The translations under genes and the position numbers were made by a program. From Candidatus Electrothrix yaqonensis (GTDB taxonomy: Bacteria; Desulfobacterota; Desulfobulbia; Desulfobulbales; Desulfobulbaceae), in NCBI GenBank assembly GCA_047651235.1, contig CP178758.1:1590001-1622000 (forward strand): a DNA stretch of 32,000 nt, given 5' to 3'. The notes below the pieces were generated by a model. It ran no database searches and was not told the origin of the DNA. It was given only the letters and a program-made list of their open reading frames with translations. Of this stretch, positions 2,547-26,562 are shown in pieces (the first letter of the stretch is position 1; each line of letters opens with the position of its first letter).

Positions 2547-2674
2547 CAACAGAGCAGAGCGAGAAAAACGTGGTGCTTCCGGGAGGCTTGATCCTTTGAT
2601 TGACAATATCCGGACAGCTGGTACAATTCGGCGGCAGTTATGCAGAAATTCATCAGGGGAACTGTCGATTTGTC

Positions 2675-3211
2675 ATGCAGCTGACAGAGCGGGAACTGCC
2701 GCATTATACCTACAACGAGTACAGTGCCTGGGAAGGCCGCTGGGAACTGATTCAGGGCATTCCCTATGCCATGTCCCCTTCTCCATCCTATGCCCATCAG
2801 CGGATCAGTCAAAAAATAGCCCGACTGCTGGATGAAGCTCTGGATGACTGTGCATCCTGCCGGGCTGTTCTGCCGGTTGACTGGAAGATTGCCGACGACA
2901 CGGTTGTCCAGCCCGACAACATGGTTCTCTGCTATCAGCCGGAGGGCCTGTTTCTGACCAAGGCTCCTTCCCTGATTGTTGAAATTCTGTCCCCTTCCAC
3001 CTCCAGCAAAGACCGTATTACCAAATTCAATCTTTATCAGGAAGAAGGGGTCGATTATTATTGCATTGTTGATCCGGCGACAAAGACAACCAAAATTTAT
3101 GTTCTGCAGAACGGCCGGTACAGCAAACTGTTGGATGCGACAGACGAGACTGTGACCTTTACCCTGAAAGAATGCGTTTTTGATGTTGATTTTTCCCGGA
3201 TCTGGGATTGA
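2675..3211 (+). CDS. Uma2-family (DUF820) PD-(D/E)xK endonuclease
   Basis: YTYNEY...[32 protein letters not shown] and [37 protein letters not shown] match Uma2 family hallmarks. Start is uncertain: ATG at 2675 is preferred, and the ORF track's start at 2600 is a TTG. Confidence 0.75.
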
Positions 3212-8445: not shown

Positions 8446-8844
8446 ATGAATTACGGTGTAGTCAGCCAGGAACAGCTTGAAAAGATTGATGAGATCCTGT
8501 CGGAGCAGCTCATCAAGATCGGAGTGGACTGTGTCATCATTATCGATATGGCGGGAAATATTATTACGGCCAAGGACAACGGCACATCCAAGTATGACGT
8601 CTATTCGTTTGCAGCTCTGGCAGCCGGTAACTTTGCCACTGTGGATGCGATGGCAAAACTGGTCGGAGAGCAGGAATTTTCTCTGCTTTTTCATAAGGGG
8701 ACGGACTGTAATATCCATTTTTCCAAGATTGATGAGGAGCTGCTGCTGATCACCATGTTCGGAAAACATATCTCACTCGGTTTTCTGCGGCTGAATGTTG
8801 TGAAGGCGCTGGAGCAGATACGGAAACTCTGGGCAGGCAAATAG
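8446..8844 (+). CDS. mglB: Roadblock/LC7-domain GTPase-activating protein MglB
   Basis: 132 aa. Collinear with Myxococcus MglB as I recall it (..VIIIDMAGNIIT.., SFAALAAGNFATVDAMAKLVGEQEF.., FHKG.., SLGFLRLNVVKA). GAGG RBS; immediately upstream of mglA. Confidence 0.88.
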   Translation: MNYGVVSQEQLEKIDEILSEQLIKIGVDCVIIIDMAGNIITAKDNGTSKYDVYSFAALAAGNFATVDAMAKLVGEQEFSLLFHKGTDCNIHFSKIDEELLLITMFGKHISLGFLRLNVVKALEQIRKLWAGK

Positions 8845-8924: not shown

Positions 8925-9530
8925 TTGAGCTTTATTAATCTACGCGAAAAGATCGTTCAGGTAAAAGTTGTGTATTACGGTCCGGGCAGGGGAGGAAAGA
9001 CGTCCAACCTTGAATATATCAACCGGAAATTCAGCAAACAGATCCAGTCCGAAATGGTCAGTCTGAAGACGCACGGAGACCGTACCCTGTTTTTTGATTT
9101 TCTGCCCTTTGATATGGGAAAAATCAAAGGATATGAACTGAAGATTCAGCTCTATACCGTGCCGGGGCAGGTGAAATACAACGCCACCCGCAAGCTGGTG
9201 CTGAAAGGGGTGGACGGGATTGTTTTTGTTGCTGATGCCCAGGAGGCCATGCGGGAAAAGAATATCCGCTCCCTGAATCAGCTGCATGAAAATCTCAAAA
9301 GCTATAAGGAGTCCATTTTCAAAATTCCCCTGGTCATGCAGTACAATAAGGTGGATCTGCGTAACCAGGGAATTCCTGTCCTACCCACTGCGGTGCTGGA
9401 AAAGGATCTGAACAGCAAACTGAAGGTACCCTCTTTTGAAGCCAGTGCCCTGACGGGATATAATGTTCCTGAAACACTGAAAAAGATCATCTCATCCACA
9501 GTCGTGTCAGTGCAGAAGAAACTCCTGTAA
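8925..9530 (+). CDS. mglA: Ras-like polarity GTPase MglA
   Basis: TTG start with AGGAGAG RBS 5 nt upstream. MSFIN N-terminus, P-loop VVYYGPGRGGKT, DRTLFFDFLP, LYTVPGQV (switch II Gln), GIVFVADAQ, QYNKVDL (NKxD). Close to the M. xanthus MglA pattern. Confidence 0.93.
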   Translation: MSFINLREKIVQVKVVYYGPGRGGKTSNLEYINRKFSKQIQSEMVSLKTHGDRTLFFDFLPFDMGKIKGYELKIQLYTVPGQVKYNATRKLVLKGVDGIVFVADAQEAMREKNIRSLNQLHENLKSYKESIFKIPLVMQYNKVDLRNQGIPVLPTAVLEKDLNSKLKVPSFEASALTGYNVPETLKKIISSTVVSVQKKLL

Positions 9531-9617: not shown

Positions 9618-12600
9618 ATGCCCAAAGTAACAGACGAATTTGAAGACCTCACACAGTTTGCAGATGAGTCGTTTGATACCGAAGAAGTTGATCTGTTTGA
9701 ATTTGCCGATGATGATGATTCCCCTCTCCTTCGTCTGAAGTCGATCGTTCTCTCTCTGGACTGGGACATTACCGAGCAGACTCTAGCCGAACTGACTGAA
9801 GAGGTGGCAAACCTGCGTTCGCTGTGGGACGGCGACAAGGTAGCGCAGATCTATCTTCAGGGAATGGACAATATCGGCAGATATCTTCAAAAAGAGGGGG
9901 CCTATGCTCATCCCAATGCGATTAAACTTCTTCTTACTCTCTTTTATAATTATGAAAAAATAATATCATCAACTGATATCAGCGGCGATGCCATAGCGGT
10001 AATGCTCAAGGCGGATGTCCGGAAATTTAAAGTACTTCAGTATCAGATCAGCGAAATTGCTGCCGGTTATGATGAGTCCGAAGCAGTTGAAGCAGTTGCT
10101 CCGACTGATGAACCTGTGCTTGAAGAGGAAGACAGAGCAGATTCCGGCGGAGACCAGGAAAAAGACAAGGACGACGATCCGCTGCACAGTATGGAAGCCA
10201 CTATTCTCGGCCTGGAATGGGAGGTTACCCGGGAAGGACTTGAGAAATTCCATGCTGAATCTACCGAACTGCGGGAAAGACTGCGTGATAACCGGGAGGC
10301 TCAGGTTCTTGTGCAGGGGCTGCAGGTATTGGGCGCCTATATTCGGGAGGAAGAGACAAATGCGCATCCGGATGCCTTTACTATCCTTCATTCCTTTTAC
10401 GATGCCTTGAAACTCCTGCTCCAGGATAAAAACCTCAGTGCCGAGCAACGGAAAAAAATTCTCCTTGAGCAGGTCGGCAGTCTGAACAGCCTGAAAGAAA
10501 TTATTGCCAAATCAGCAGCTGACAGAGAAGCAGGTCGTAACAATGTCAATAATATCGATAATACTGCAGAACCGGACAGAAAAGAATTTGCCGCCGAACC
10601 GGAGGTCGGAGTGCAGGATGATGCGGATGATATAAGCGGAAGTGACGAGTTTTCGCTTGCTGAAGATGATTTGGATCTGGATACTGCGGATGAGGAAGCG
10701 GGAGAGTTCGATTTTTCCACGTTTGATGAGGAGGAAACAGAATCCGCGTCTTCTGTACCTGAAAAAGAAAAAAATGCGGAAGAGGATGAAGGTGCTCTGG
10801 AACCTGACCTGTTTTCCGATGATTCCGATGAAGATGCGGATTTTGACTTTGGCGATTTGGGTGATTTTGGTGATGATGAACTCGGTGATGATGAACTGGC
10901 GTCCGACCTGAAGAAAGACCTTGATTCTGCTGAAGAAACTGCATCTGAAGAGCTGTTCGGAGAAGCCGAAGATATCGATCTTGATGCTGATTTTGATGCC
11001 GAGCCAGATGCGGATAGCCTCTTTCCGGATGATCAGGATGATGAATCTGAACTGGTGCTCTCTCCGGACAATGACGATGAATCAATCACACCGGCATTGA
11101 TGGATGTTGAAGAAGAAGGCATTCATGAAGAATTCGGATCGGCCGGAGATGCTGAGAACGATAAGCCCGCTGATCTGGATGACCGACTCGATTCGTTATT
11201 TGGTGCTGATGATGTTGAGGAGGATGATACCGGTAGCGGGGAAGCGGACAGGCAGGAGGAGCAGGAGGACCGGCATCAGGAAAAGCCGGTTGCTGAAATC
11301 GAGACGTTCAGCCCTGACAGTGGTGATACCCCGACTGATAAGCAGGCAGATGCCAAAGAAGAAGGCGAGTTGAACGACGATCTTGATTCATTCTTCGATT
11401 TTGACGATGAGCTGGAAAATGATGCGCGGGCGCTGGTTGACAACAGCGGACTTTTTGACGGTCTGAAAGATATTGACGCTGACGGAGAAGAAGATGAGGA
11501 ACTTCTGGAGGGAGAGGAAGACCTTGATTCATTCTTCGATTTTGACAGCGACGATAATGGTGATGAGGTACAGCTGGAGGAGGAGACCTCCGGGAGAGAA
11601 GATGACGCTCCGGCAGCCGATGATGACCAGGATGATGACGAATTCGATGTTGTACTGGAAGATCTTGACGGGGATCAGGAGAGTGAAGATGAAGACCTGC
11701 CGGTTGCTCTTGCGGATGCTGATGAGGAAGGCGGTTTTAATGAGGAGACTGTTGAGGTTGATGATGATCGGTCGTCCGAACTTGATGAAAAACTGGATTT
11801 CTTTTTTGATTTTGACAACGACACATCAGAATCAGAGGATGATCGGGCAGCAAGTGAGGATGAGCCGGTCGCTGCTGCGCAGGAGGATGACGGAACCGGA
11901 GACGATGCGGATTTGTTTTCTTTTGAGGAGGACGAAGCGCCTTCTGCCGCAGCGGAACAGGCACCGGACAACGCCAGGGATGCTGCGGAGGAAACCGGGG
12001 TACTTGCAAAATTGGATTCTCTCTTTGATACTGATGAAGATGATGACGAACTTTCTGATGATATCCAGGTAGAAGAACAGGCTGCAAAGACAGGCGGAGT
12101 GGCCGACGACGAGCTTGTTCTTTCCTTTGAGGATGAAAAGAGCGGACCGGACGAACCTGCCTTATCGTCAGAATCAGAACTCTCCTCAGTTGCCTCCGTT
12201 TCGGATGATCAGCAGGATGTCAGTGATGAACTTACTGAAGAGCTTGACAGTTTCTTCTCTTTTGACGATGAGGAACCGGGAGGAGAGCAGGCGGAAACCG
12301 AGACGGGTACCCCGAATGAATATGAAGAAATCGCTGACCTTGATGATGAACTTATCGTGCCGCTCGATGATGAAACTGCAGAGGAATCGGTAGCGGGCGA
12401 AGATGGGACCGTGGAAGAAAGCTCGGCGTTTGGGGATGCGTTTTCTTTGTTCCCTGATGATGAAGAAAGTGAGAAAAACAGTTCTGAGGAGCCTGCAGCT
12501 TCTCTGCCTGCGCAACCGAAGGAAACTCCATCCGCATCTGCGGATGAACCGGAAGAGCTTGATTCGTTCTTTGCTGCCGATGATGATGATGACGATGATG

Positions 12601-15600
12601 ATTTTGCCGGTGCGGCGCTGAGCGGCGATGCGGCTGCGGAACAGGCTGAGGATGAATTCGCCCTGTCGCTTGATGAGGATGACCTCGGCGGGGATGAGGC
12701 GGATGATTCCTTTTTTGCCGGAGCCGGAGCGGATGAGGATGAAGATGAGGAAGCGGCCGGAGCTGAACCGGATATCTCTGCTGAAGTAGCTGTATCCTCG
12801 GAAGAACCTGGAGATGAACCGGAAGAGCTTGATTCGTTCTTTGCTGCCGATGATGATGACGATTTTGCCGGTGCGGCGCTGAGCGGCGATGCGGCTGCGG
12901 AACAGGCTGAGGATGAATTCGCCCTGTCGCTTGATGAGGATGACCTCGGCGGGGATGAGGCGGATGATTCCTTTTTTGCCGGAGCCGGAGCGGATGAGGA
13001 TGAAGATGAGGAAGCGGCCGGAGCTGAACCGGATATCTCTGCTGAAGTAGCTGTATCCTCGGAAGAACCTGGAGATGATCCGAAAGAGCTTGATTCGTTC
13101 TTTGCTGCCGATGATGATGACGATTTTGCCGGTGCGGCGCTGAGCGGCGATGCGGCTGCGGAACAGGCTGAGGATGAATTCGCCCTGTCGCTTGATGAGG
13201 ATGACCTCGGCGGGGATGAGGCGGATGATTCCTTTTTTGCCGGAGCCGGAGCGGATGAGGATGAAGATGAGGAAGCGGCCGGAGCTGAACCGGATATCTC
13301 TGCTGAAGTAGCTGTATCCTCGGAAGAACCTGGAGATGATCCGAAAGAGCTTGATTCGTTCTTTGCTGCCGATGATGATGACGATTTTGCCGGTGCGGCG
13401 CTGAGCGGCGATGCGGCTGCGGAACAGGCTGAGGATGAATTCGCCCTGTCGCTTGATGAGGATGACCTCGGCGGGGATGAGGCGGATGATTCCTTTTTTG
13501 CCGGAGCCGGAGCGGATGAGGATGAAGATGAGGAAGCGGCCGGAGCTGAACCGGATATCTCTGCTGAAGTAGCTGTATCCTCGGAAGAACCTGGAGATGA
13601 TCCGAAAGAGCTTGATTCGTTCTTTGCTGCCGATGATGATGACGATTTTGCCGGTGCGGCGCTGAGCGGCGATGCGGCTGCGGAACAGGCTGAGGATGAA
13701 TTCGCCCTGTCGCTTGATGAGGATGACCTCGGCGGGGATGAGGCGGATGATTCCTTTTTTGCCGGAGCGGATGAGGATGAAGATGAGGAAGCGGCCGGAG
13801 CTGAACCGGATATCTCTGCGGAAGTAGCTGTATCCTCGGAAGAACCTGGAGATGAACCGGAAGAGCTTGATTCGTTCTTTGCTGCCGATGATGATGACGA
13901 TTTTGCCGGTGCGGCGCTGAGCGGCGATGCGGCTGCGGAACAGGCTGAGGATGAATTCGCCCTGTCGCTTGATGAGGATGACCTCGGCGGGGATGAGGCG
14001 GATGATTCCTTTTTTGCCGGAGCCGGAGCGGATGAGGATGAAGATGAGGAAGCGGCCGGAGCTGAACCGGATATCTCTGCTGAAGTAGCTGTATCCTCGG
14101 AAGAACCTGGAGATGAACCGGAAGAGCTTGATTCGTTCTTTGCTGCCGATGATGATGACGATTTTGCCGGTGCGGCGCTGAGCGGCGATGCGGCTGCGGA
14201 ACAGGCTGAGGATGAATTCGCCCTGTCGCTTGATGAGGATGACCTCGGCGGGGATGAGGCGGATGATTCCTTTTTTGCCGGAGCCGGAGCGGATGAGGAT
14301 GAAGATGAGGAAGCGGCCGGAGCTGAACCGGATATCTCTGCTGAAGTAGCTGTATCCTCGGAAGAACCTGGAGATGATCCGAAAGAGCTTGATTCGTTCT
14401 TTGCTGCCGATGATGATGACGATTTTGCCGGTGCGGCGCTGAGCGGCGATGCGGCTGCGGAACAGGCTGAGGATGAATTCGCCCTGTCGCTTGATGAGGA
14501 TGACCTCGGCGGGGATGAGGCGGATGATTCCTTTTTTGCCGGAGCCGGAGCGGATGAGGATGAAGATGAGGAAGCGGCCGGAGCTGAACCGGATATCTCT
14601 GCTGAAGTAGCTGTATCCTCGGAAGAACCTGGAGATGATCCGAAAGAGCTTGATTCGTTCTTTGCTGCCGATGATGATGACGATTTTGCCGGTGCGGCGC
14701 TGAGCGGCGATGCGGCTGCGGAACAGGCTGAGGATGAATTCGCCCTGTCGCTTGATGAGGATGACCTCGGCGGGGATGAGGCGGATGATTCCTTTTTTGC
14801 CGGAGCCGGAGCGGATGAGGATGAAGATGAGGAAGCGGCCGGAGCTGAACCGGATATCTCTGCGGAAGTAGCTGTATCCTCGGAAGAACCTGGAGATGAA
14901 CCGGAAGAGCTTGATTCGTTCTTTGCTGCCGATGATGATGACGATTTTGCCGGTGCGGCGCTGAGCGGCGATGCGGCTGCGGAACAGGCTGAGGATGAAT
15001 TCGCCCTGTCGCTTGATGAGGATGACCTCGGCGGGGATGAGGCGGATGATTCCTTTTTTGCCGGAGCCGGAGCGGATGAGGATGAAGATGAGGAAGCGGC
15101 CGGAGCTGAACCGGATATCTCTGCTGAAGTAGCTGTATCCTCGGAAGAACCTGGAGATGATCCGAAAGAGCTTGATTCGTTCTTTGCTGCCGATGATGAT
15201 GACGATTTTGCCGGTGCGGATGACAGAGATGAAGATCTTTTGCTTGATCAGAAATATGAGGAAAAATCAGAAGATATAAAGTATCCGGAGACGTTCGTGT
15301 CCGATGAGAAATCGGCAGCAGCCGAAGTTGAGGATGAAGTTGCCGCTGCGCTCATAAGCGATCAAAAGACTGAAAGTATGCCCGCAGCAGCGGCTCTGTT
15401 TGGTGCTGCTTCCCTTATCGGGGCTGCGGCGGTCTCATCTGCTTTTTCCGCAGACAAGGTGCAGCATCTTCAGGAGCTGACTGCTGCAGCCAAAAAAGAA
15501 GCCGGTCCCCAGCAGGGAGTTGTCCTGAACCTGCTGGAGTCTGCAACATCTATGATTGCCCGCACTCCCGAACCGGTGGAGGATGACCGCACCGTTATTC

Positions 15601-15863
15601 AGGAATTGGCTGCCGGGCTCGCCGAAGCGGACGATCCGGGGCAACTGACTGCTCTGGTCAGCCGTTACACTTCCTGGCAGCAGGAATTTTTTACCCGGCT
15701 CCTGACACGGACAGAAATTCCGCATATTGAACCGGCTGTTTCCGGAGCTGACAGCATCAGCAGTCAGGATGCCGTACATCAGGTGCAGGAGAGCTTTGCT
15801 CAGCTCAGGCAGGCCATGATGGATGAATTCAATCTGCTCAGAAAGGAACTGAAAAAAGGATAA
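9618..15863 (+). CDS. Giant hyper-acidic repeat protein (2,081 aa), unknown function; candidate MglAB-associated scaffold
   Basis: Single uninterrupted ORF. N-terminus has two paralogous ~75-aa domains. A long D/E-rich region carries reiterated LDSFF-type motifs. Then 10+1 near-identical 87-aa repeats, one Ala-rich hydrophobic segment, and a ~150-aa non-acidic helical C-terminus. I saw no signal peptide or catalytic motif. Confidence 0.85.
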   Translation: MPKVTDEFEDLTQFADESFDTEEVDLFEFADDDDSPLLRLKSIVLSLDWDITEQTLAELTEEVANLRSLWDGDKVAQIYLQGMDNIGRYLQKEGAYAHPNAIKLLLTLFYNYEKIISSTDISGDAIAVMLKADVRKFKVLQYQISEIAAGYDESEAVEAVAPTDEPVLEEEDRADSGGDQEKDKDDDPLHSMEATILGLEWEVTREGLEKFHAESTELRERLRDNREAQVLVQGLQVLGAYIREEETNAHPDAFTILHSFYDALKLLLQDKNLSAEQRKKILLEQVGSLNSLKEIIAKSAADREAGRNNVNNIDNTAEPDRKEFAAEPEVGVQDDADDISGSDEFSLAEDDLDLDTADEEAGEFDFSTFDEEETESASSVPEKEKNAEEDEGALEPDLFSDDSDEDADFDFGDLGDFGDDELGDDELASDLKKDLDSAEETASEELFGEAEDIDLDADFDAEPDADSLFPDDQDDESELVLSPDNDDESITPALMDVEEEGIHEEFGSAGDAENDKPADLDDRLDSLFGADDVEEDDTGSGEADRQEEQEDRHQEKPVAEIETFSPDSGDTPTDKQADAKEEGELNDDLDSFFDFDDELENDARALVDNSGLFDGLKDIDADGEEDEELLEGEEDLDSFFDFDSDDNGDEVQLEEETSGREDDAPAADDDQDDDEFDVVLEDLDGDQESEDEDLPVALADADEEGGFNEETVEVDDDRSSELDEKLDFFFDFDNDTSESEDDRAASEDEPVAAAQEDDGTGDDADLFSFEEDEAPSAAAEQAPDNARDAAEETGVLAKLDSLFDTDEDDDELSDDIQVEEQAAKTGGVADDELVLSFEDEKSGPDEPALSSESELSSVASVSDDQQDVSDELTEELDSFFSFDDEEPGGEQAETETGTPNEYEEIADLDDELIVPLDDETAEESVAGEDGTVEESSAFGDAFSLFPDDEESEKNSSEEPAASLPAQPKETPSASADEPEELDSFFAADDDDDDDDFAGAALSGDAAAEQAEDEFALSLDEDDLGGDEADDSFFAGAGADEDEDEEAAGAEPDISAEVAVSSEEPGDEPEELDSFFAADDDDDFAGAALSGDAAAEQAEDEFALSLDEDDLGGDEADDSFFAGAGADEDEDEEAAGAEPDISAEVAVSSEEPGDDPKELDSFFAADDDDDFAGAALSGDAAAEQAEDEFALSLDEDDLGGDEADDSFFAGAGADEDEDEEAAGAEPDISAEVAVSSEEPGDDPKELDSFFAADDDDDFAGAALSGDAAAEQAEDEFALSLDEDDLGGDEADDSFFAGAGADEDEDEEAAGAEPDISAEVAVSSEEPGDDPKELDSFFAADDDDDFAGAALSGDAAAEQAEDEFALSLDEDDLGGDEADDSFFAGADEDEDEEAAGAEPDISAEVAVSSEEPGDEPEELDSFFAADDDDDFAGAALSGDAAAEQAEDEFALSLDEDDLGGDEADDSFFAGAGADEDEDEEAAGAEPDISAEVAVSSEEPGDEPEELDSFFAADDDDDFAGAALSGDAAAEQAEDEFALSLDEDDLGGDEADDSFFAGAGADEDEDEEAAGAEPDISAEVAVSSEEPGDDPKELDSFFAADDDDDFAGAALSGDAAAEQAEDEFALSLDEDDLGGDEADDSFFAGAGADEDEDEEAAGAEPDISAEVAVSSEEPGDDPKELDSFFAADDDDDFAGAALSGDAAAEQAEDEFALSLDEDDLGGDEADDSFFAGAGADEDEDEEAAGAEPDISAEVAVSSEEPGDEPEELDSFFAADDDDDFAGAALSGDAAAEQAEDEFALSLDEDDLGGDEADDSFFAGAGADEDEDEEAAGAEPDISAEVAVSSEEPGDDPKELDSFFAADDDDDFAGADDRDEDLLLDQKYEEKSEDIKYPETFVSDEKSAAAEVEDEVAAALISDQKTESMPAAAALFGAASLIGAAAVSSAFSADKVQHLQELTAAAKKEAGPQQGVVLNLLESATSMIARTPEPVEDDRTVIQELAAGLAEADDPGQLTALVSRYTSWQQEFFTRLLTRTEIPHIEPAVSGADSISSQDAVHQVQESFAQLRQAMMDEFNLLRKELKKG
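12541..15229 (+). repeat. In-frame tandem array of 261-bp units (10 complete + 1 partial), inside the acidic-protein gene
   Basis: The motif g[g/a]aagagcttgattcgttc recurs at 12551, 12821, 13082, 13343, 13604, 13859, 14120, 14381, 14642, 14903 and 15164. Spacing is 261 bp, except 270 for unit 1 (+9 bp, extra GAT codons) and 255 for unit 5 (6-bp deletion near 13765). Confidence 0.97.
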
Positions 15864-15871
15864 AGCTGCCA

Positions 15872-16498
15872 ATGTTCGGTTTTCTGCAAAGCGTTACCTC
15901 CTCACTGGGCAGAAAATATATCATGGCTGCAACCGGTCTCCTGCTCGGGGACTTTCTGCTGATCCATGCTATCGGCAACAGCTTTATCTTTCAGGGAAAG
16001 GTCGCGTTTAATGCCTATGCCGAACATCTCCATTCTCTTGACCCTCTGATCCCGCTGTCGGAACTGCTGCTTGCAGCGGTGTTCCTGCTTCATATTGTTA
16101 CCGGGATCAGTCTGTTTCTGGAGAACCGGAAGGCCAGGGGCAGCAGGTACGCTGTCCGCAAATCAGCCGGAGGACAGACATGGGGAACCCGCACCATGCC
16201 GTGGACCGGGGCGGCCATCCTCGCCTTCCTCATCCTCCATCTTCTTACTGTCCGTTTTGTCGATCATGCGGTATCGGTGGCAGACACCGTGGTTACCGTA
16301 CTCGGCAATCCCCTCCTTTCTTTTCTTTATTTCCTCGGCGTGACCGCCTTGGCACTGCATATCAGTCATGGCTTCTGGTCGCTGTTTCAGAGTTTTGGTA
16401 TCAACCACCCGCAGTATAATCGGTTGATACGACGGGGTGGTTATCTACTGACGGCACTGATAAGCTGTATCTTTCTTAGTGTCATCCTGTTGTTATAG
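15872..16498 (+). CDS. Succinate dehydrogenase/fumarate reductase-type cytochrome b subunit (b558 family), orphan
   Basis: 208 aa, five predicted TM helices. N-terminal ..SSLGRKYIMAATGLLLGDFLLIHAIGN.. resembles SdhC/FrdC type B. Four helix-embedded His (H32, H74, H123, H163 by my count) fit dihaem ligation. No sdhA/sdhB-like ORF follows. Confidence 0.7.
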   Translation: MFGFLQSVTSSLGRKYIMAATGLLLGDFLLIHAIGNSFIFQGKVAFNAYAEHLHSLDPLIPLSELLLAAVFLLHIVTGISLFLENRKARGSRYAVRKSAGGQTWGTRTMPWTGAAILAFLILHLLTVRFVDHAVSVADTVVTVLGNPLLSFLYFLGVTALALHISHGFWSLFQSFGINHPQYNRLIRRGGYLLTALISCIFLSVILLL

Positions 16499-16650: not shown

Positions 16651-17256
16651 CTACCTGTCTGTGCAGGTAAACTGAATTGAAGAAAACATTGCCCAGCCGA
16701 GGCGCCTATTCATCGGGGTGCCATCAATCCAGCCGATCTCGGTCTGATAGCTGCCATCACCGTAATCCTTGCGTACCAGCGCGTGACCTGTCAGAACACC
16801 GGCAATACCACATAGTTTTGCATCTCCAAAGGCATCCTCCAGAGAAATATAGAATGTATGCTCTGTTTCTCCGGTAATATCCCCGGAAGTATAAAGGAAG
16901 CTGCCGACTTCAGGATTACCTTTTTCATCTGCAGGCATTCCTGCTTTGGCCGGGGTGTTTCCAGCTCCTGCCCAGAAATTCGTCTCGACAAGTTCCCATC
17001 CGTCAAGTGTCGCATAGGTGACTTCCAGAAAATCGCCGTCAGGCCTGATACAAACCAGACCTGCCAGAGTACGGTGACCGGCTATGAACGTCTGGCATAT
17101 GGGAGTATCCGTATTATATAAATTGACCTGATAATCCGCCGGATTGACCCGATAACCCGCCTGAGCGGTAAAAGGAATGGAAGCAAACAAAAGAGCTGCT
17201 GCGGAGATGAAACTTCTGCGGAATACTTTTGAAGAAAATTTTGATGTGAATTTCAT
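16651..17256 (-). CDS. Secreted protein of unknown function
   Basis: I prefer the Met at 17256: GGAGG sits 7 nt upstream on the - strand. Signal peptide MKFTSKFSSKVFRRSFISAAALLFASIPFTAQA|GY. Four Cys in the mature part; no family recognised. Confidence 0.6.
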   Translation of the reverse strand: MKFTSKFSSKVFRRSFISAAALLFASIPFTAQAGYRVNPADYQVNLYNTDTPICQTFIAGHRTLAGLVCIRPDGDFLEVTYATLDGWELVETNFWAGAGNTPAKAGMPADEKGNPEVGSFLYTSGDITGETEHTFYISLEDAFGDAKLCGIAGVLTGHALVRKDYGDGSYQTEIGWIDGTPMNRRLGWAMFSSIQFTCTDR

Positions 17257-17757
17257 AATATACCTCCAGATAAAAAAAATGCATGAGAAAGCAGGCAACC
17301 CGGCCGTCTCCCTGCTGGAGACCCTTGGCTTTCCGGCACCGCCTCACGGCGGCTGTGGCTTTATCAACTTTCCGGCTCTGCTTTTTCCGGAAAGTATATT
17401 ATGTCAAAGAACCTGCTGCGCTTAAGAACTATTCTTAGTTAAGATATCCTTACACTATTTATAGCTTAGATGCTATCAAATGTCAAACCTTTTTTTGAAA
17501 AAGTAAGACAAGCAACATTTTGAAATAACTTTATATTAAACCTGCAGGCCAAACAGTACTCGGCGTATATTCTGCTGCTCCTGTTACGCGTCCGGAAGTG
17601 GACTTCCGAAAATCCCGAAACCGGGTAAAAAATATTCACCTTTATTTTCCGGCAGGATAAAAATTACCCGCCCGGCAAGAGAATAAAGATGCAGAGATGA
17701 TAATAAAAACTATTCTTTTCCTTGTGCTGCATAATGGTACCTGCTCTGTCGGATGGG

Positions 17758-19390: not shown

Positions 19391-20379
19391 ATGAACGCTC
19401 CCAGCCCCGAAAAAAGAAGTCCCCATGACAAATTCTTTGAGTTGACCGGCATCGCCCGGCAACTTACGTCTTTTCACGAAAGATATCATCTCTTTTTTAA
19501 GAGACATACAGTAAGTTTGTCAGATAAAGCATTCCAATACTTGAAAGGTTTATTCCAGTCTGACAAAAAAACATGGAACGTATGGAGGAAAAGGTTCCGG
19601 GCGTTAAATATGAGCCCCTCCAGTATTTTCTTTCCGACTCGAACTGGGATTGGCGTCCTGTAAACAACCAAGTAGCTAAAGATGCAGATAAACTTTTAGG
19701 AGGAAAGGAAGATAGCGCTCTTTTAATTGATGAATCCGGGATACCCAAAAAGGGTAAAATGTCTGTTGGGGTTTCTCGTCAATGGTGCGGGCAGCTTGGT
19801 AAAACCGACAACTGTCAAGTAGTTCTACTTTGGCGATCATAAACATAACTAGCTTATTTTTATTAAGTATTTAAAAACCCCTGTTTTTAGTATTATTAAT
19901 ATTATTAAATAGTTAATGGTATGGTCACCAAAGTAGAATTAGTTGTCAGACGTGAGGTTAAGTCCCCGAAAAAAATTAAATATAGCCTAAGTAATGCGGA
20001 AAGTAACACGTCAACAAGACGACTTGCATATATGCAAGCTCAACGATATTGGGTTGAACGGCCATTTCAGGATGCAAAAAATGAATGTGGAATGGGTGAT
20101 TATCAGGCTCGGGGATGGCTGGCTTGGCATCATCATATGACTATGGTCATGATGGCCATGTTGTTTATGGTCGAGCAACGATTATACCATCAAGTCGGTG
20201 TCCCGTTATTGAGTTGCGCTGATATAACAACATTACTCAAGTCAATTCTTCCACGTCGAGATGTAAACGAAGATGAAGTTATAAGACAGCTTCGTCAACG
20301 GCATGAAAAGAGGCAAGCTTCGATTGATTTCGCATATGAGAAACAACCGAATTGCAAATTATTACCACAGCCTTTGTGA
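19391..20379 (+). pseudogene. IS701-family DDE transposase, frameshifted and internally deleted
   Basis: The N-terminal part is split over two frames at an A7 run (~19564): ..FHERYHLFFKRH..LKGLFQSDKK / MERMEEKVPGVKYEPLQYFLSDSNWDW...LLIDESGIPKKGKMSVGVSRQWCGQLGKTDNCQV. The C-terminal part (19921-20379) has YWVERPFQDAKNECGMGDYQARGWLAWHHHMTMVMMA. The central catalytic region is replaced by 78 bp of AT-rich DNA. Confidence 0.8.
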
Positions 20380-20631: not shown

Positions 20632-21279
20632 CTATGAATTTTTATCGCTTTTCATATCAAGATTGATTTTTTTGTGAGTCGATTGGGTCTGATCAGTATT
20701 TTGATATTGTTCGTTTATCTTGTTTTTGCTATAAGCAAATAACCCTTCATCTATACCGATAAAACAGTTAGTTGAAGATTCCTGTATCTGCATTCCCCGT
20801 GTTTTTTTTTTGGCATGCCAGTCTGCCCAAAGTGTCCAGACAAAGGGATTATAAGGCTCCCAAGCCAGTCCCTGCTCAATCATCCGTTCAAGGCGGCGCA
20901 TAATCCCGGCTGAAAGATTATACCGTTTGAAGAGAATATCGCCCTGTTTACAAAGGGTACGAATAAAGAAATAGCTGTTGCCCGTCAGTTCGGCAAAACG
21001 AAGATTTTGCTCCTGGTTCCTGAAAAAGCGTTCTGCCAGATGCGCAGTGTCCTGTTGTTCACCAGTTTGTAATGCGTGAAGCAGTGATTCTCGTTCCGTA
21101 GCATTAACAGGAAAAACTTTGGGTCTTGATCTACCTCTTCCCTTGACATTTTTTTCAGACAAGATTTGATGCAGCTCCCTTGCCACCTTATCCTGAGCAC
21201 GATTCCTGAACACAGCCAGGGCACTTTCAAGATTCTGCTGCCATATAGCTGGAGCAACATAATTTGAATATGCCCACAA
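20632..21279 (-). CDS. Hypothetical protein; C-terminal half of a gene split by a MITE
   Basis: The first 11 codons (MWAYSNYVAPA) are encoded by MITE sequence. From IWQQNLESA.. onward it continues the upstream ORF 21346-22008 in frame once the MITE is removed. Confidence 0.6.
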   Translation of the reverse strand: MWAYSNYVAPAIWQQNLESALAVFRNRAQDKVARELHQILSEKNVKGRGRSRPKVFPVNATERESLLHALQTGEQQDTAHLAERFFRNQEQNLRFAELTGNSYFFIRTLCKQGDILFKRYNLSAGIMRRLERMIEQGLAWEPYNPFVWTLWADWHAKKKTRGMQIQESSTNCFIGIDEGLFAYSKNKINEQYQNTDQTQSTHKKINLDMKSDKNS

Positions 21280-21350
21280 GAGGCATAAGTTTTGCCTTCA
21301 CGCCTTTCAGATAGCTGATCCTGTATTCAGTTTATACTGCTCCAGCTATA
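21244..21350. mobile_element. 103-bp MITE (copy 1) with 11-13-bp terminal inverted repeats, flanked by TA/TA
   Basis: TA|TAGCTGGAGCA...TGCTCCAGCTA|TA. It differs at 1 of 103 positions from copy 2 at 23395-23497. Confidence 0.8.
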
Positions 21351-22008
21351 TCTGCTGATTTAGCGAATACAGCCCACGGAGTGCAGCGTACTGCTTTTTA
21401 AAATGGGAGTTCGCCTCAGCTCCGCTTGTGTAACAGACAGATTCGTGGATCATCAGAGCCAGCAGCATAAGTACCTGCTTGTTTTCGTCAGAACACCCCT
21501 GCAGGCCGAACAGAGCGACATCCAGATATTCAGGACGTCCATCTGATGCCAAACGCAACCAAGCAGGGACAAAACTCCTTTTTTCTTGCTGACGCCCAAG
21601 CAGTCGCCAGCACTCCAGAGCAGGATCGCGTTCAGGCGCGAGTCGCAAAGGAGTAAGCCAGCGCAACCAACTGTCAAGTCCCTGCTGGAGCTGATAGGGA
21701 AACATCTGCAAGTCAAGAAGCTGAACCGAAATCAGGCAATCACAGATATCCTTGCTATACACAGCAAAACCCAGCCTGTCGATCTTTCGGGCATATTCTT
21801 TGCGCATGGTGGTAAACCAAGCAAACAGAGCCATGTCTATCCGTTTTCGCCGTTCTGCAAATTCAGATACATAAGGAAATTCCTGCCAAAGCAGTTCCGG
21901 GATATCCATCCACGGTGACGATCCCAATCCAGCCCGACCGCTGAATAGATCGTTGACAGCTTTCCGGGGATCAGTATCAAAGGTGGACAGCCAGCGTTCA
22001 ATCAGCAT
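21346..22008 (-). CDS. Hypothetical protein; N-terminal half of the gene split by the MITE
   Basis: GGAGGG RBS upstream. The ATG overlaps the stop of the upstream gene fragment (ATGCTGA). The stop codon TAG lies inside the MITE terminus. Confidence 0.6.
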   Translation of the reverse strand: MLIERWLSTFDTDPRKAVNDLFSGRAGLGSSPWMDIPELLWQEFPYVSEFAERRKRIDMALFAWFTTMRKEYARKIDRLGFAVYSKDICDCLISVQLLDLQMFPYQLQQGLDSWLRWLTPLRLAPERDPALECWRLLGRQQEKRSFVPAWLRLASDGRPEYLDVALFGLQGCSDENKQVLMLLALMIHESVCYTSGAEANSHFKKQYAALRGLYSLNQQI

Positions 22009-22153: not shown

Positions 22154-23381
22154 TAGTGCTCTGTCAGATCTCAATTTTATGGTAAACGGATTTTAATTTG
22201 CACCGGGCGTCAGAGATTTTTATTTGCCAATCAACACCACGTTGACTGTTGTTCACATCGGTTGACCATGCGGCAATCTCTTCTTGTAACGTCTCAAGCT
22301 CCCCTATGCGACGACCAGAGAGGCATTGTCGAGTCATGGAACTCAGCTCATTTTCTGCTATATTGAGCCAGCTTCCATGCTTCGGGGTATAACAGAACTC
22401 AATCCGGCGCACTAATGCACGGGCACGATCAGGGGCAAAAGCTTCATAAAACGCTCCCTTTGTATGGGTATTGAGATTATCAGATACCAACGTAATCTTT
22501 TCAGACTCGGCATAGCGGCCTTCAAGGAGGCGGGCCACTTCGACGGCCCAGTCTGCTTTGGTTCGCCGTGGGCGTGCGGAGGCTTCACGCCACCCTGAAA
22601 GTGGCTCGGTAAACATAAAAATACTAGCGGTGCCGTTGCGTTCATACTCATAATCAACACGTTTCGGATGATTCTCTGTCGCCAGGATAGGCTTGCGAGT
22701 TTCCTTTATCAATTGAACGGGCTGCTCGTCCATGCAAATAAGAGGATGATCTTGATTATACGGTCTTTCATAGGCTTCCAGTACATCCTCCATATTGGCC
22801 GCAAATTCCGCATCTTTTTTTGGAGGAATAACCCAATATTGGATTTTTCGGTTGTTCATCCCGTTTTTTTTATTACCTGTCGAACACTTTCATGACTAAT
22901 CGACGGAACAATTTCCAATTCAACAACATGGCGGGCCAGCAAACGCAATGACCAGTTTGCATATCCCGGCGGAGGAGAACCAAGGCGAGTGGCAATGATT
23001 CTGGCTTCTTGCTCTCCGTTCAATAGTTTTGGAGTAGGCGGGGTTACACGTTTTTTTCCGTCAAGTGCTTGTTGAAAGCCGTGCAAAACAAAATTCTGAC
23101 GGATGTTCTCAACAGTTTTTGTCCTACAGTTGAACGCTTCTGCTATCCTACTGTCTGTCCAGCAGGGGCCATTTGCATCAGCCTTCAGTAATATGTGAGC
23201 ACGACGTACTTTTTGACTGCTCCCCGAAAGTTTTTTGATAGTCTCGTGTAAATGAGCGCATTCTTCTTGGGTCAACCGAACAATGTATTTTTTGGGCATG
23301 AAGAGCCTCCGAGTGTTTTTCGGCTTCATGTAACATACTTTCGGCAGGATTACTCTAAAATTTAGCTTTTACATAGCACTA
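22154..23381 (-). mobile_element. IS630-family insertion sequence (~1.2 kb) with flanking TA
   Basis: Imperfect TIRs: TA-gtgctctgtcagatctcaattttatgg (left) versus the reverse complement of ctctaaaatttagcttttacatagcac-TA (right), ~20/27 matches. Encodes the two-frame transposase. Confidence 0.85.
22164..23329 (-). CDS. IS630-family transposase, two frames joined at an A8 slippery run (-1 frameshift)
   Basis: ORF1 (22856-23329) is an HTH/winged-helix N-terminus. ORF2 (22164-22859) is the DDE domain (..YWVIPPKKDAEF..ICMDEQPVQL..VSDNLNTH..SWLNIAENE..). They overlap at A AAA AAA C (T-run at 22864-22871 on the + strand). Confidence 0.88.
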
Positions 23382-23709: not shown

Positions 23710-24348
23710 TCACGCAGTGAAATAGCGCATCAGGGCGACAGGAAGTGCCTTTCTCCCCCAATATCCGAGCCCCAGACGGTCGCGCAGAGCATGGGGCCAG
23801 TCGTCATCATCGCATTCCTCATGCACCTCATTCTGCAAGGCGGCGAAGACAGGACGGTTGTCACGGCAATCGTTCCACCTTGCAAAAAAACGCGCCGCTT
23901 CCTGTTTCGCATCGTAATTCCGACCGGAGTCGGCACGCCGCAAGAGAGACTTCAGCAAGTCAAACTTGTTTCTGAGTTCCGGAGGACCGAGCCCCTTGCC
24001 GCTGGAATTTTTCCATTTGACAAGAGGACGTTCAAGATTTTCAATCCGCACCAGAACCGTGTCCTCAGACAATCCTTCTTTCCACGCCGGGCGGTTAATT
24101 TCAAGAAAGGCATCCGGAATGCTTGAACGGAAAACCTCCTCCTGATTTTCTGTATAGTCCTTTCTGGCTGCCGTCCAGTCTGCCCATGTCATTTTGTCTG
24201 CGTCATCATGCGGCAGATAAATCTCAAACTGTTCCCATCGTTGATCCGATGCTCGCTCCTCAAAGCGGCAATTGTCGGCAACAGCGGCTTCAACAGTATT
24301 TGAGGAACGGGCCAGTTTGTCTAAGAATGATCTGAAATTTAAAGACAT
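23710..24348 (-). CDS. Hypothetical protein (212 aa), first gene of the disrupted accessory cassette
   Basis: Clean ORF with no family recognised (..WPHALRDRLGLGYWGRKALPV..). An open +1 frame continues past its stop toward the IS630 junction. Confidence 0.5.
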   Translation of the reverse strand: MSLNFRSFLDKLARSSNTVEAAVADNCRFEERASDQRWEQFEIYLPHDDADKMTWADWTAARKDYTENQEEVFRSSIPDAFLEINRPAWKEGLSEDTVLVRIENLERPLVKWKNSSGKGLGPPELRNKFDLLKSLLRRADSGRNYDAKQEAARFFARWNDCRDNRPVFAALQNEVHEECDDDDWPHALRDRLGLGYWGRKALPVALMRYFTA

Positions 24349-24408: not shown

Positions 24409-26562
24409 TTAGGCCAGAAACTGAATTTTATTCTCATTCGGTTTCATCTCCGGACACGGAGTGATCTCGATGGCCGCCTGGTGCCTGTTTTCCAGCTCTA
24501 TAATCTCCGCGCGTTTTTTGTTCAGCAGATACTGCCCGACTTCAAGGGGCAGGTTAACCTCCACGCGCTTGACTTTTTTCCGGCTCACCCCGGTCTGAAT
24601 CCGGCGGAGATAGTACAGGGCCAGGGTTTCTACGGAGCGGACCACCCCGCGCCCCTCACAGTATGCGCAACAGTGATAGCTGCCCTTTTCAATAGGCGCG
24701 CCCATCTTCTGGCGGGAAATCTGCATCAGGCCGAAACGCGAGATCCGGCTGATATCCACCTTGGCCTTGTCCCGCTTCATGGCGTTTTTGACCTTTTTTT
24801 CCACCTCCCTGATATTGCCCTTGCTGCGCATATCGATAAAATCCACCACAATCAGGCCGCCCAGATCGCGCAGACGCAGCTGGCGGGCCAGCTCTTCGGC
24901 GGCCTCCATATTGGCGAGAAAGATGGACTGCTCAAAATCCCCTTTCTGGGAGGTCCGGCCGGAGTTGACATCAATGGCCACCAAGGCTTCCGTGGGATTG
25001 ATGACAATGGAACCGCCGGAAGGGAGCTGTACCTGAGGCTGATAGATGGACTCGATCTGATCCTCAATATTACTCTGATTAAAGATCGGCTTGGCACCCC
25101 GATGCAGCCTGACCTGCACTTTTTTCTGTCTGGCCGGCAGCAGATCAATAAAATTGGTCACCTGATTGTACGCCTCATCGGTATCAACGATAATCTCCTG
25201 AATATCCGCAACAAAATGATCCCGGAGAAAGCGCAGAATCGTATCCTGATCTTCGTAAAGCAGTGCCGGGGTATCAGAACTCTGCCCCCGATCTTTTATC
25301 TCTTTCCAGAGACCGAGCAGATAACGCAGATCCTGCTGCAGGGCTGTTTTGGTGATATCGGAGCAGGCGGTGCGGACAATATAGCCGATACCCTCCGGAA
25401 TATTGAAACCGGCCATGATTTCGCGCAGCTCGCTCCGGCGCTTTTCTCCGGAAATTTTGCGGGAGACGCCTGTGCTGTCACTGCCCGGCATGAGCACCAG
25501 ACAACGCCCCGGCAAAGAGAGATAGGTGGTCATATTGGCGCCCTTATTGCCGGTCACCTCCTTGACTACCTGAACCAGGACTTCCTGGCCCCGTTTGATC
25601 ACATCTTCTATTTTCAGCTTGCGCCACTGCTGCTGCTCGATCAGTTGCCGGGCCTGCGGGCTGACGTCCTGCCGATAGTATTCAGGATGGATATCGCTGA
25701 ACGGCAGGAATCCGTTACGGCCGGTACCGATTTCCACAAAAGCGGCCTGCAGATTGGCTTCAATGGAGACAATGCGGCCCTTGTAGATATTGTTTTTGGT
25801 CCGCTCCCGCACAACCGTACTGACGTGAAACGACTCGAGACGACCGTTCTCCACCTGGGCAATGCGGCATTCTTCCGGCTCCTCGGCATTAATCAGCAGC
25901 TTGATTTTCTGTTTTTTCTGTTCCTCCTGCTCTTCTTTGCCGGAGGCAGGTTGTCTTTTCTGTTTCCTGCTGTCTTTGCTGTCTTCCGGCTCCTCCTGCG
26001 CAGAGGATTCCTCTTCTCCGGCCTGTCGTGTATTCTGTTTTTCCTGTTTGGGTGCGCTTTGCCTGTTCTTCCCGCTGGAGGCAGTTTTCCTTCTCCCCCT
26101 CTTCTGCGGCTTCTGCTGACGGGATACTTTCTGCTGTTCCTCTGCAGATTTTTCAGGTTGATAGGGCTGGTCCGTCTGTTCCGCCGGTGCCTCGGATTTT
26201 CTTGCTTTCTTTTCGAAAGCAGGCTCTTTGTTCTCTTTATTCAGCTCCTCCAGCTGACTCTGCTTTGCCTTACTGCCCTTACTGTTCTGCCCGCCGTTTG
26301 CCTTGTTTACATCTTTTGCCCCCTGTGGCGCATCAGGCACTGATTCCGGCACCGAAGCTGCCCAGTTGTCGCCCTGGTGATCAGAGCGGTCAGCGGCTGC
26401 CTCTTCTTTTACCGCCTCTGTTGCCGGTTCTCCGTTCAGTGCCTCCTGCCCCTGCCGGGCCATTTTGACGGCTTTAACGCTTTTCCACCAGGCCCCGGTG
26501 GTCACTTTACGTACTTTTTTCTCTTTTTCTTCAAGATTTTTTCCCGCTTCCTCAGTGGTCAT
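24409..26562 (-). CDS. rne: Ribonuclease E/G family endoribonuclease with N-terminal charged low-complexity extension
   Basis: S1 domain (NIYKGRIVSIEANLQAAFVEIGTGRNGFLPFSDI); catalytic core motifs (ALVAIDVNSGR, GGLIVVDFIDM); CAYCEGRG near the C-terminus. AGGAAG RBS upstream of the ATG at 26562. The core is RNase G-sized, preceded by ~220 aa rich in K/E/Q/R. Confidence 0.9.
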   Translation of the reverse strand: MTTEEAGKNLEEKEKKVRKVTTGAWWKSVKAVKMARQGQEALNGEPATEAVKEEAAADRSDHQGDNWAASVPESVPDAPQGAKDVNKANGGQNSKGSKAKQSQLEELNKENKEPAFEKKARKSEAPAEQTDQPYQPEKSAEEQQKVSRQQKPQKRGRRKTASSGKNRQSAPKQEKQNTRQAGEEESSAQEEPEDSKDSRKQKRQPASGKEEQEEQKKQKIKLLINAEEPEECRIAQVENGRLESFHVSTVVRERTKNNIYKGRIVSIEANLQAAFVEIGTGRNGFLPFSDIHPEYYRQDVSPQARQLIEQQQWRKLKIEDVIKRGQEVLVQVVKEVTGNKGANMTTYLSLPGRCLVLMPGSDSTGVSRKISGEKRRSELREIMAGFNIPEGIGYIVRTACSDITKTALQQDLRYLLGLWKEIKDRGQSSDTPALLYEDQDTILRFLRDHFVADIQEIIVDTDEAYNQVTNFIDLLPARQKKVQVRLHRGAKPIFNQSNIEDQIESIYQPQVQLPSGGSIVINPTEALVAIDVNSGRTSQKGDFEQSIFLANMEAAEELARQLRLRDLGGLIVVDFIDMRSKGNIREVEKKVKNAMKRDKAKVDISRISRFGLMQISRQKMGAPIEKGSYHCCAYCEGRGVVRSVETLALYYLRRIQTGVSRKKVKRVEVNLPLEVGQYLLNKKRAEIIELENRHQAAIEITPCPEMKPNENKIQFLA

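Follow-up and report, generated by a model that had tools for sequence, protein, structure and literature searches.

A near-identical in-frame repeat array in an acidic protein encoded beside mglB and mglA in Candidatus Electrothrix yaqonensis

We analysed a 32,000-nucleotide stretch of the genome of Candidatus (Ca.) Electrothrix yaqonensis (GenBank assembly GCA_047651235.1, contig CP178758.1, positions 1,590,001 to 1,622,000 of the forward strand), called the window below and used for all coordinates unless another locus is named. It holds mglB, mglA and, immediately after them, a long gene for a very acidic protein within which lies a 2.7-kb tandem repeat array. No bacterial polarity switch is better understood than the one formed by MglA and MglB. 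The array had been picked out earlier by a model that saw only the letters of the window and a list of their open reading frames (ORFs), an account that we call the sequence-only reading. As a feature the array is of an ordinary kind, being an acidic repeat that lies in frame within a disordered region; what makes it interesting is the gene that carries it.

The mglB, mglA and third-gene cassette

The two upstream genes show the marks of an MglA/MglB module, namely, an intrinsic arginine finger, TxPGQ in place of DxxGQ, and a partner of the Roadblock fold (Table 1). The window MglA carries the P-loop GPGRGGKT, the arginine finger DRTLFFDF and LYTVPGQ, and the window MglB matches that of Myxococcus xanthus (PDB 6h5b_B) at E = 1.7e-16. 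MglB measures 130–133 amino acids (aa) in all 75 of 75 related loci, ending ...IRKLWAGK, and so lacks the D/E-rich extension, more than 15 residues past the Roadblock fold, that characterizes MglB proteins with an allosteric C-terminal helix.

In a locus scan limited to a single genome for each species, the N-terminal domain of the third protein had 114 relatives, from which 80 loci were retained. Except for a few short contigs that were binned under other names, these belong to Desulfobulbaceae-type genomes, among them the cable bacteria Ca. Electrothrix and Ca. Electronema and also Desulfobulbus and Desulfogranum. The order mglB, mglA, third gene held in all of the 80 loci with upstream sequence, while the outer flanking genes varied. 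MglA and MglB together were 82–100% identical to those of the window (MglA by itself, 84–100%), whereas the N-terminus of the third protein was only 41–73% identical in the same 80 loci; in the collections searched, the closest relative of this domain reached 73–77%. The nearest relatives of the window are Electrothrix genomes, with LptE, adenine deaminase and sdhC neighbors in common. The cytochrome b gene begins 8 nt past the stop codon of the acidic gene and follows it in only three Electrothrix-type loci (L002–L004), placing it outside the conserved cassette; it stands alone, with no adjoining sdhA or sdhB. Promoter and terminator scans gave hits no commoner than in shuffled sequence.

Table 1. 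Coordinates of the cassette, of the parts of its third gene and of the next gene downstream
Feature	Position	Strand	Description and evidence
mglB	8446..8844	+	Roadblock/LC7 GTPase-activating protein, 132 aa; Pfam Robl_LC7, NCBIfam MglB
mglA	8925..9530	+	Ras-like GTPase, 201 aa, TTG start; M. xanthus MglA (PDB 6hjh), E = 4e-51
Acidic third gene of the mglB-mglA cassette	9618..15863	+	2081-aa ORF, holds the array
Conserved N-terminal acidic-aromatic peptide	9618..9719	+	MPKVTDEFEDLTQFADESFDTEEVDLFEFADDDD; alignments A1 and A2 show nearly invariant positions
N-terminal five-helix bundle, copy 1	9720..10085	+	AlphaFold2, predicted local distance difference test (pLDDT) ~90 or above
N-terminal five-helix bundle, copy 2	10179..10553	+	AlphaFold2; hhalign to copy 1
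Older, diverged acidic linker	10554..12542	+	Six LD(S/F)(F/L)F motifs (starts 11187, 11382, 11523, 11793, 12012, 12243) plus PALAD..EEGGF-type motifs
Array	12543..15219	+	Ten full 87-aa units with in-frame starts 12555, 12825, 13086, 13347, 13608, 13863, 14124, 14385, 14646 and 14907; partial eleventh from 15168
C-terminal helical domain, then terminal amphipathic helix	15330..15860	+	Family-conserved; ends ...FAQLRQAMMDEFNLLRKELKKG
Cytochrome b, sdhC b558 family	15872..16498	+	NCBIfam TIGR02046, E = 1.5e-40
Motif-bearing example peptides of the acidic protein			EPEELDSFFAADDDDD, DDRLDSLFGADD

Architecture of the acidic protein

The third protein is 19% Asp and 16% Glu (35% together) with a net charge of -649; over its whole length no match was found in Pfam or NCBIfam, and the exact 2081-aa protein is absent from a collection of 15 billion proteins. 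An AlphaFold2 model of residues 1–311 (pLDDT 83.9) consists of two bundles, at 38–154 and 188–310, with a disordered acidic loop between them. By hhalign the two are homologues (probability 99.4%, E = 3.7e-21). Neither a fold search nor a sequence-profile search found a relative in PDB. There follows an acidic linker of ~1560 residues, 40% of them Asp or Glu (D+E), the final ~890 of which are the array. The last ~180 residues of the protein are conserved across the family and were modeled with moderate confidence (pLDDT 67.7) as an all-helical bundle plus a terminal helix. Direct profile-profile comparison between the C-terminal and N-terminal domains was not significant (probability 0.3–1.6%). 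A distant orthologue, P0077, bridges the two, matching the C-terminal profile at E = 2e-8 and the N-terminal profile at E = 4e-5, and by this transitive route only, the C-terminal domain probably represents a third, diverged copy of the N-terminal one.

A hydropathy scan found no hydrophobic segment in the first 1900 residues. The only candidate lies further on, the Ala-rich MPAAAALFGAASLIGAAAV at 15378–15434 (aa 1921–1939; Kyte-Doolittle 1.79). In the model it forms helix one of the C-terminal bundle, and its equivalents in orthologues are polar or charged, with Arg, Ser and Pro present. A secreted adhesin or surface-repeat protein was ruled out, there being no signal peptide or anchor and the composition being cytoplasmic and acidic.

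The repeat array

Tandem Repeats Finder described the array by a period of 261 bp, 10.2 copies, 98% matches and a score of 5147, in agreement with the ten-and-a-bit near-identical in-frame units of the sequence-only reading. Spacing is a constant 261 bp except for one step of 255, and the first unit measures 270 nt. That reading was slightly out of phase, setting its unit starts (12551, 12821 and so on) 4 nt before the first Glu codon of ELDSFF. Full units are on average 99.3% identical to each other in pairwise comparison, and at minimum 98.5%; the alignment of all eleven units has just four substitution sites. Two of these are linked changes at the junction, GAA CCG GAA versus GAT CCG AAA, giving DEPE versus DDPK; the order of variants given in the sequence-only reading, E,E,K,K,K,E,E,K,K,E,K, proved exact on unit alignment. 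The other two sites are synonymous: GCT/GCG, in units 5 and 9, which had also been seen from the letters, and GAT/GAC in unit 1. Both of the indels that had been reported are present: unit 1 has a 9-bp GAT-type insertion, and unit 5 a 6-bp deletion by which one copy of a GCCGGA GCCGGA mini-repeat has been lost. The count of 34 acidic residues in 87 holds for the K variant, the E variant having 35, and the Lys is the sole basic residue of a unit, as had been said.

Each unit carries ELDSFF, DEFALSLDEDD and DDSFF, and the array stays in frame into the family-conserved C-terminal domain. Its units align to modules of the older linker at ~24–41% identity with the order of motifs preserved. There is also a higher-order pattern: the variant order of units 1–5 recurs in units 6–9, which suggests that growth of the array involved duplication of multi-unit blocks. 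Synonymous divergence between units is 0.013. The comparison of synonymous with non-synonymous differences that the sequence-only reading had proposed gives a ratio (pN/pS) of 0.41 from 4 variable sites only, too few for a test of selection.

The older linker of the same gene has a 15-bp in-frame tandem repeat of 1.9 copies at 10869–10897, encoding GDDELGDDEL, showing that slippage acts at a finer scale too in the acidic linker.

Arrays in orthologues and their assembly

Tandem arrays of their own were found in 22 orthologues, with periods of 33–501 bp, all multiples of three, and mostly placed in the acidic linker before the C-terminal domain. Examples are 23 units of 63 aa in Ca. Electronema halotolerans, 5.6 of 79 aa at L023, 6 of 49 aa at L041 and 4.6 of 63 aa at L028. 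The strict LDxFF motif occurred about once per unit (up to about twice in the longest units) in 16 of the 21 arrays that were counted; four of the other five have an FF core that the strict pattern misses (DSFF in three, EDFF/EAFF in one), and the array at L047 has NFFF only. The window unit is at most ~43% identical to any segment of any relative, and the array is thus lineage-specific; a 30-mer common to all of its units had no match in the metagenome contigs of the Joint Genome Institute (JGI).

The 23-unit array of Ca. Electronema halotolerans is far more diverged, at 0.185 for synonymous and 0.030 for non-synonymous divergence. The hydrophobic positions of the motif are invariant across its 23 units, and its pN/pS of 0.16 argues for constraint at the protein level. 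With a synonymous divergence of just 0.013, the window array is much younger or more strongly homogenized than this one, which fits the earlier suggestion of recent expansion or gene conversion.

Differences in copy number can be seen between close relatives. P0128 is a protein of 966 aa and P0129 one of 1401 aa, each known from its own metagenome assembly; their flanks are ~99% identical, and between these lie one and eight copies, respectively, of a ~62-aa unit of the EGFDSFFSFDD type. This difference was observed in that related gene pair, and not at the window locus.

Arrays of this kind are hard on assemblers, as the sequence-only reading had warned. Two Logan short-read contigs (SRR31704081 and SRR31704082, our L081 and L082) are 100% identical to the window over the compared stretch, and both begin, independently, at window position 15190, which lies within the array ~30 nt short of its 3' edge, as is typical of a k-mer break at a repeat. 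Most cable-bacterium orthologues in the databases end within their repeats. Because the arrays break short-read assemblies, metagenome-assembled genomes systematically show the gene cut short or at a wrong length. One could then suppose that the array exists while its copy number or variant order in the window is a product of assembly, whether expanded, collapsed or mis-ordered, and the two contigs of the identical strain, the truncated database entries and the fact that the largest proteins and largest arrays sit in two chromosome-level loci (L004 and L009) would all agree with that. We nonetheless regard such an artifact as unlikely: the frame is held over 2.7 kb into the conserved C-terminal domain, the variants form an ordered multi-unit pattern and not a uniform consensus, both indels are multiples of three, and arrays of comparable or larger size occur in chromosome-level assemblies (23 copies, L009).

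The LDxFF motif

Orthologues of all sizes contain the core motif, (E/K)-L-D-x-F-F with acidic residues after it. The window linker has 17 LD(S/F)(F/L)F motifs, of which the array supplies eleven and the older part six, and the Ca. Electronema halotolerans protein has 31 such sites. In the linkers of 40 orthologues with no detected array, strict LDxFF occurred 102 times, against 0.51 expected from composition-preserving shuffles. Short relatives carry a single motif-like N-terminal peptide, RL(Q/D)DLFG(D/E), the counterpart of which in the window protein is VDLFEF.

These numbers bear on a plainer account, in which the repeats are neutral growth of a low-complexity, disordered spacer, working through acidity and length alone like an entropic bristle or ruler, with motifs that have no binding role. 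Such growth would suit the extreme composition (35% D+E), the failure of linkers to align between species outside the motifs, and the wide variation in orthologue length. Against it stand the ~200-fold enrichment of LDxFF over composition-matched shuffles, the retention of the motif in independently amplified units, the invariant hydrophobic positions and low pN/pS of the 23-unit array, and the conservation of the motif-like N-terminal peptide in short relatives that have no long linker; on balance we find it improbable. A cytoplasmic polyanion acting as a calsequestrin-like buffer or store of cations (Ca, Mg or transition metals), with repeat number as its capacity, would account for the net charge and the long Asp/Glu runs. 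We think it very unlikely, as it leaves unexplained the strictly conserved aromatic motif, the conserved terminal domains and the invariant linkage to mglBA.

Relation to known polarity proteins

Several relatives are named 'pilus assembly protein FimV' by JGI and UniRef, raising the question of whether the window protein is a polar landmark of the type of HubP (Vibrio, Shewanella) or FimV (Pseudomonas). Both have a long, mostly unstructured and very acidic cytoplasmic region, which in HubP lies between folded flanks and contains several imperfect acidic repeats that differ in number and length even between close species (PMC12918733). A long acidic cytoplasmic region is shared, here as a linker of 40% D+E with 10.2 units, and so is the variation of repeat number between species. 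In other respects the likeness fails. Pfam and NCBIfam yielded no family for a LysM-type periplasmic domain or signal peptide, the N-terminus being acidic (MPKVTDEFEDL...) and made of helical bundles of a cytoplasmic type. The C-terminal 214 aa gave no NCBIfam hit to a FimV TPR-like domain at E <= 0.1, by sequence search and not by fold comparison, and the C-terminal model is a helical bundle unmatched to the FimV C-terminal model. With the LysM domain, a transmembrane segment in the expected place and the FimV C-terminal motif all unfound, we rejected membership in the FimV/HubP family, and a polar landmark of that type is hardly credible here. The terminal domains of the window protein are helical bundles unrelated to those of HubP/FimV, its gene is linked to mglBA instead of flagellar or Par systems, and its repeats are far more identical (99%), with a defined LDxFF motif.

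A second comparison is with RomR of M. xanthus, which belongs to the MglA/MglB polarity system as a scaffold of the MglA module. Part of RomR is disordered, and its Glu-rich C-terminal helix can take the place of that of MglB in stimulating MglA (PMC6785124). We found no Response_reg Pfam hit for a RomR-type receiver domain in the window protein, the N-terminus of which is the paired five-helix bundles; RomR also differs in that it is not encoded in the mglBA operon, and in architecture, size and the repeat array.

The third comparison is with MglB itself. In M. xanthus, its C-terminal helix, EISDDDIDNLFSE, binds an allosteric pocket on MglA, with contacts by D150–152, D154 and F157, L156 having served only to set the helix register (PMC6785124). 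That helix is acidic and has an (I/L)-D-x-(L/F)-F core, as do DDRLDSLFG and EELDSFF of the window protein. The likeness lacks statistical support: a profile of the LDxFF motif scored 3.4 bits against the M. xanthus MglB tail, a value reached by 11% of shuffles, and had no match in PDB at E <= 10. The window motif moreover sits in another protein and in many copies; its binding to MglA is a hypothesis.

A candidate scaffold for the MglA switch

We consider it rather probable that the array is a young or continually homogenized amplification of a motif module, and that the protein around it is a multivalent scaffold serving the MglA polarity system. By this proposal, an 87-residue acidic module has been amplified in frame within the disordered linker of a cytoplasmic protein that would serve as a scaffold or tether of the MglA/MglB switch, much as HubP would through its acidic repeats or RomR through its acidic tail. 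Every duplication would add one LDSFF and two accessory hydrophobic motifs, so that copy number would set both valency (17 LD(S/F)(F/L)F motifs, 11 of them from the array) and linker length; the array thus probably sets the number of partners that the protein can bind. Growth and shrinkage would most likely proceed by unequal recombination or replication slippage, at times in blocks of four or five units. We infer the scaffold role and the binding partner from the array and its frame, the architecture of the protein, the gene linkage, the conservation of the motif, the constraint in the sister array and the length differences among relatives, all of which were observed directly.

Several points weigh against the scaffold proposal. 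The connection of the third protein to MglA/MglB is one of gene order alone, and the partner of LDxFF is inferred only. Selection on the window array is not measurable from just four variable sites, and in the 23-unit sister array gene conversion can mimic constraint. The one versus eight units of P0128 and P0129 may be either a real polymorphism or a collapsed short-read assembly, and the copy number of the window array is that of the assembly. Lastly, the hydrophobic segment at aa 1921–1939 might conceivably be a membrane helix or associate with the membrane.

A narrower version of the scaffold proposal is that the LDxFF motifs stand in for the MglB C-terminal helix in trans, docking in the allosteric pocket of MglA. 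The helix is absent from the MglB proteins of these bacteria. The window MglA keeps a Lys at the K181 position and has Met and Ile at positions 64 and 67. We put this forward tentatively, by analogy with the M. xanthus helix, and rate it as doubtful. If true, the third-gene product would be a multivalent MglA-binding platform with a capacity set by repeat copy number, at which MglA could be concentrated or sequestered; filamentous cable bacteria, with their large cells, would be one such setting.

The wider family

The N-terminal domain has the signature LKSIxLSxDWEIT...YLQ, which the window protein fits. An exhaustive search returned 820 cluster representatives matching the domain at E <= 1e-3, and among the 150 matches listed it was always at the protein N-terminus. 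The family profile had no match in PDB, and a third search, with the C-terminal profile, returned just two fragments. The analysis thus defines an uncharacterized family of ~800 sequence clusters that accompanies mglBA and combines a new helical domain with a short acidic-aromatic motif, the count of which has risen by amplification on repeated, independent occasions, cable bacteria showing the strongest effect. The proteins have a median length of 887 aa in other Desulfobulbaceae and 1334 aa in Electronema; Electrothrix proteins, known from two complete genes only, measure 1421–2268 aa, a range that includes the 2081 aa of the window protein.

The gene order of Roadblock, GTPase and third gene was also found in five further distant lineages (P0017, P0106, P0084, P0067 and P0086), with a Ras-like GTPase of 196–201 aa. 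P0084 is a minimal form of 421 aa, and P0067 and P0086 are forms of 742–749 aa. P0017 and P0106 are proteins of 331–351 aa in which the N-terminal domain is joined to a transmembrane region and a HAMP domain (L083, 4821–9992, and L085, 4698–10037, both Desulfobacterota-type contigs). Neighbors in these HAMP lineages include a PatA_N response regulator and a TPR-MshEN-T2SSE ATPase; the latter resembles in its domains a type IV pilus assembly ATPase, a possible sign of a connection with type IV pili.

A 2014 survey of prokaryotic small GTPases described variable neighborhoods for MglA of groups 1, 4 and 5, with only occasional PATAN proteins, and no conserved third operon gene for these groups (PMC4316618); the window MglA is not assigned to a group here. 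In the literature that we searched, cable bacteria, Electrothrix or Desulfobulbus were never paired with MglA or FimV. The third gene is a candidate for anchoring or tuning the MglA switch in Desulfobulbaceae, including the gliding, multicellular cable bacteria.

Other features of the window

Apart from the cassette, a gene for a Uma2-family putative restriction endonuclease at 2600–3211 (+) lies between dnaB and leuS, with a 4-nt overlap with the start of leuS. Some 6 kb downstream of the acidic gene, two overlapping ORFs at 22164–23329 (-) match HTH_32 and DDE_3 and may be an insertion-sequence transposase, possibly IS630-like. Around it, in a stretch of lower GC content (41–49% at 19–24 kb), are five ORFs of 152–220 aa unmatched in Pfam, at 16651–17298 (-), 19921–20379 (+), 20632–21279 (-), 21346–22008 (-) and 23710–24348 (-). 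An RNase E/G homologue at 24409–26562 (-) has a Lys/Gln/Glu-rich and apparently disordered N-terminal extension of ~230 residues before its S1 domain; the region has a strong AT skew of -0.35 at 26–27 kb and a long, probably spurious antisense ORF at 24481–26343 (+).

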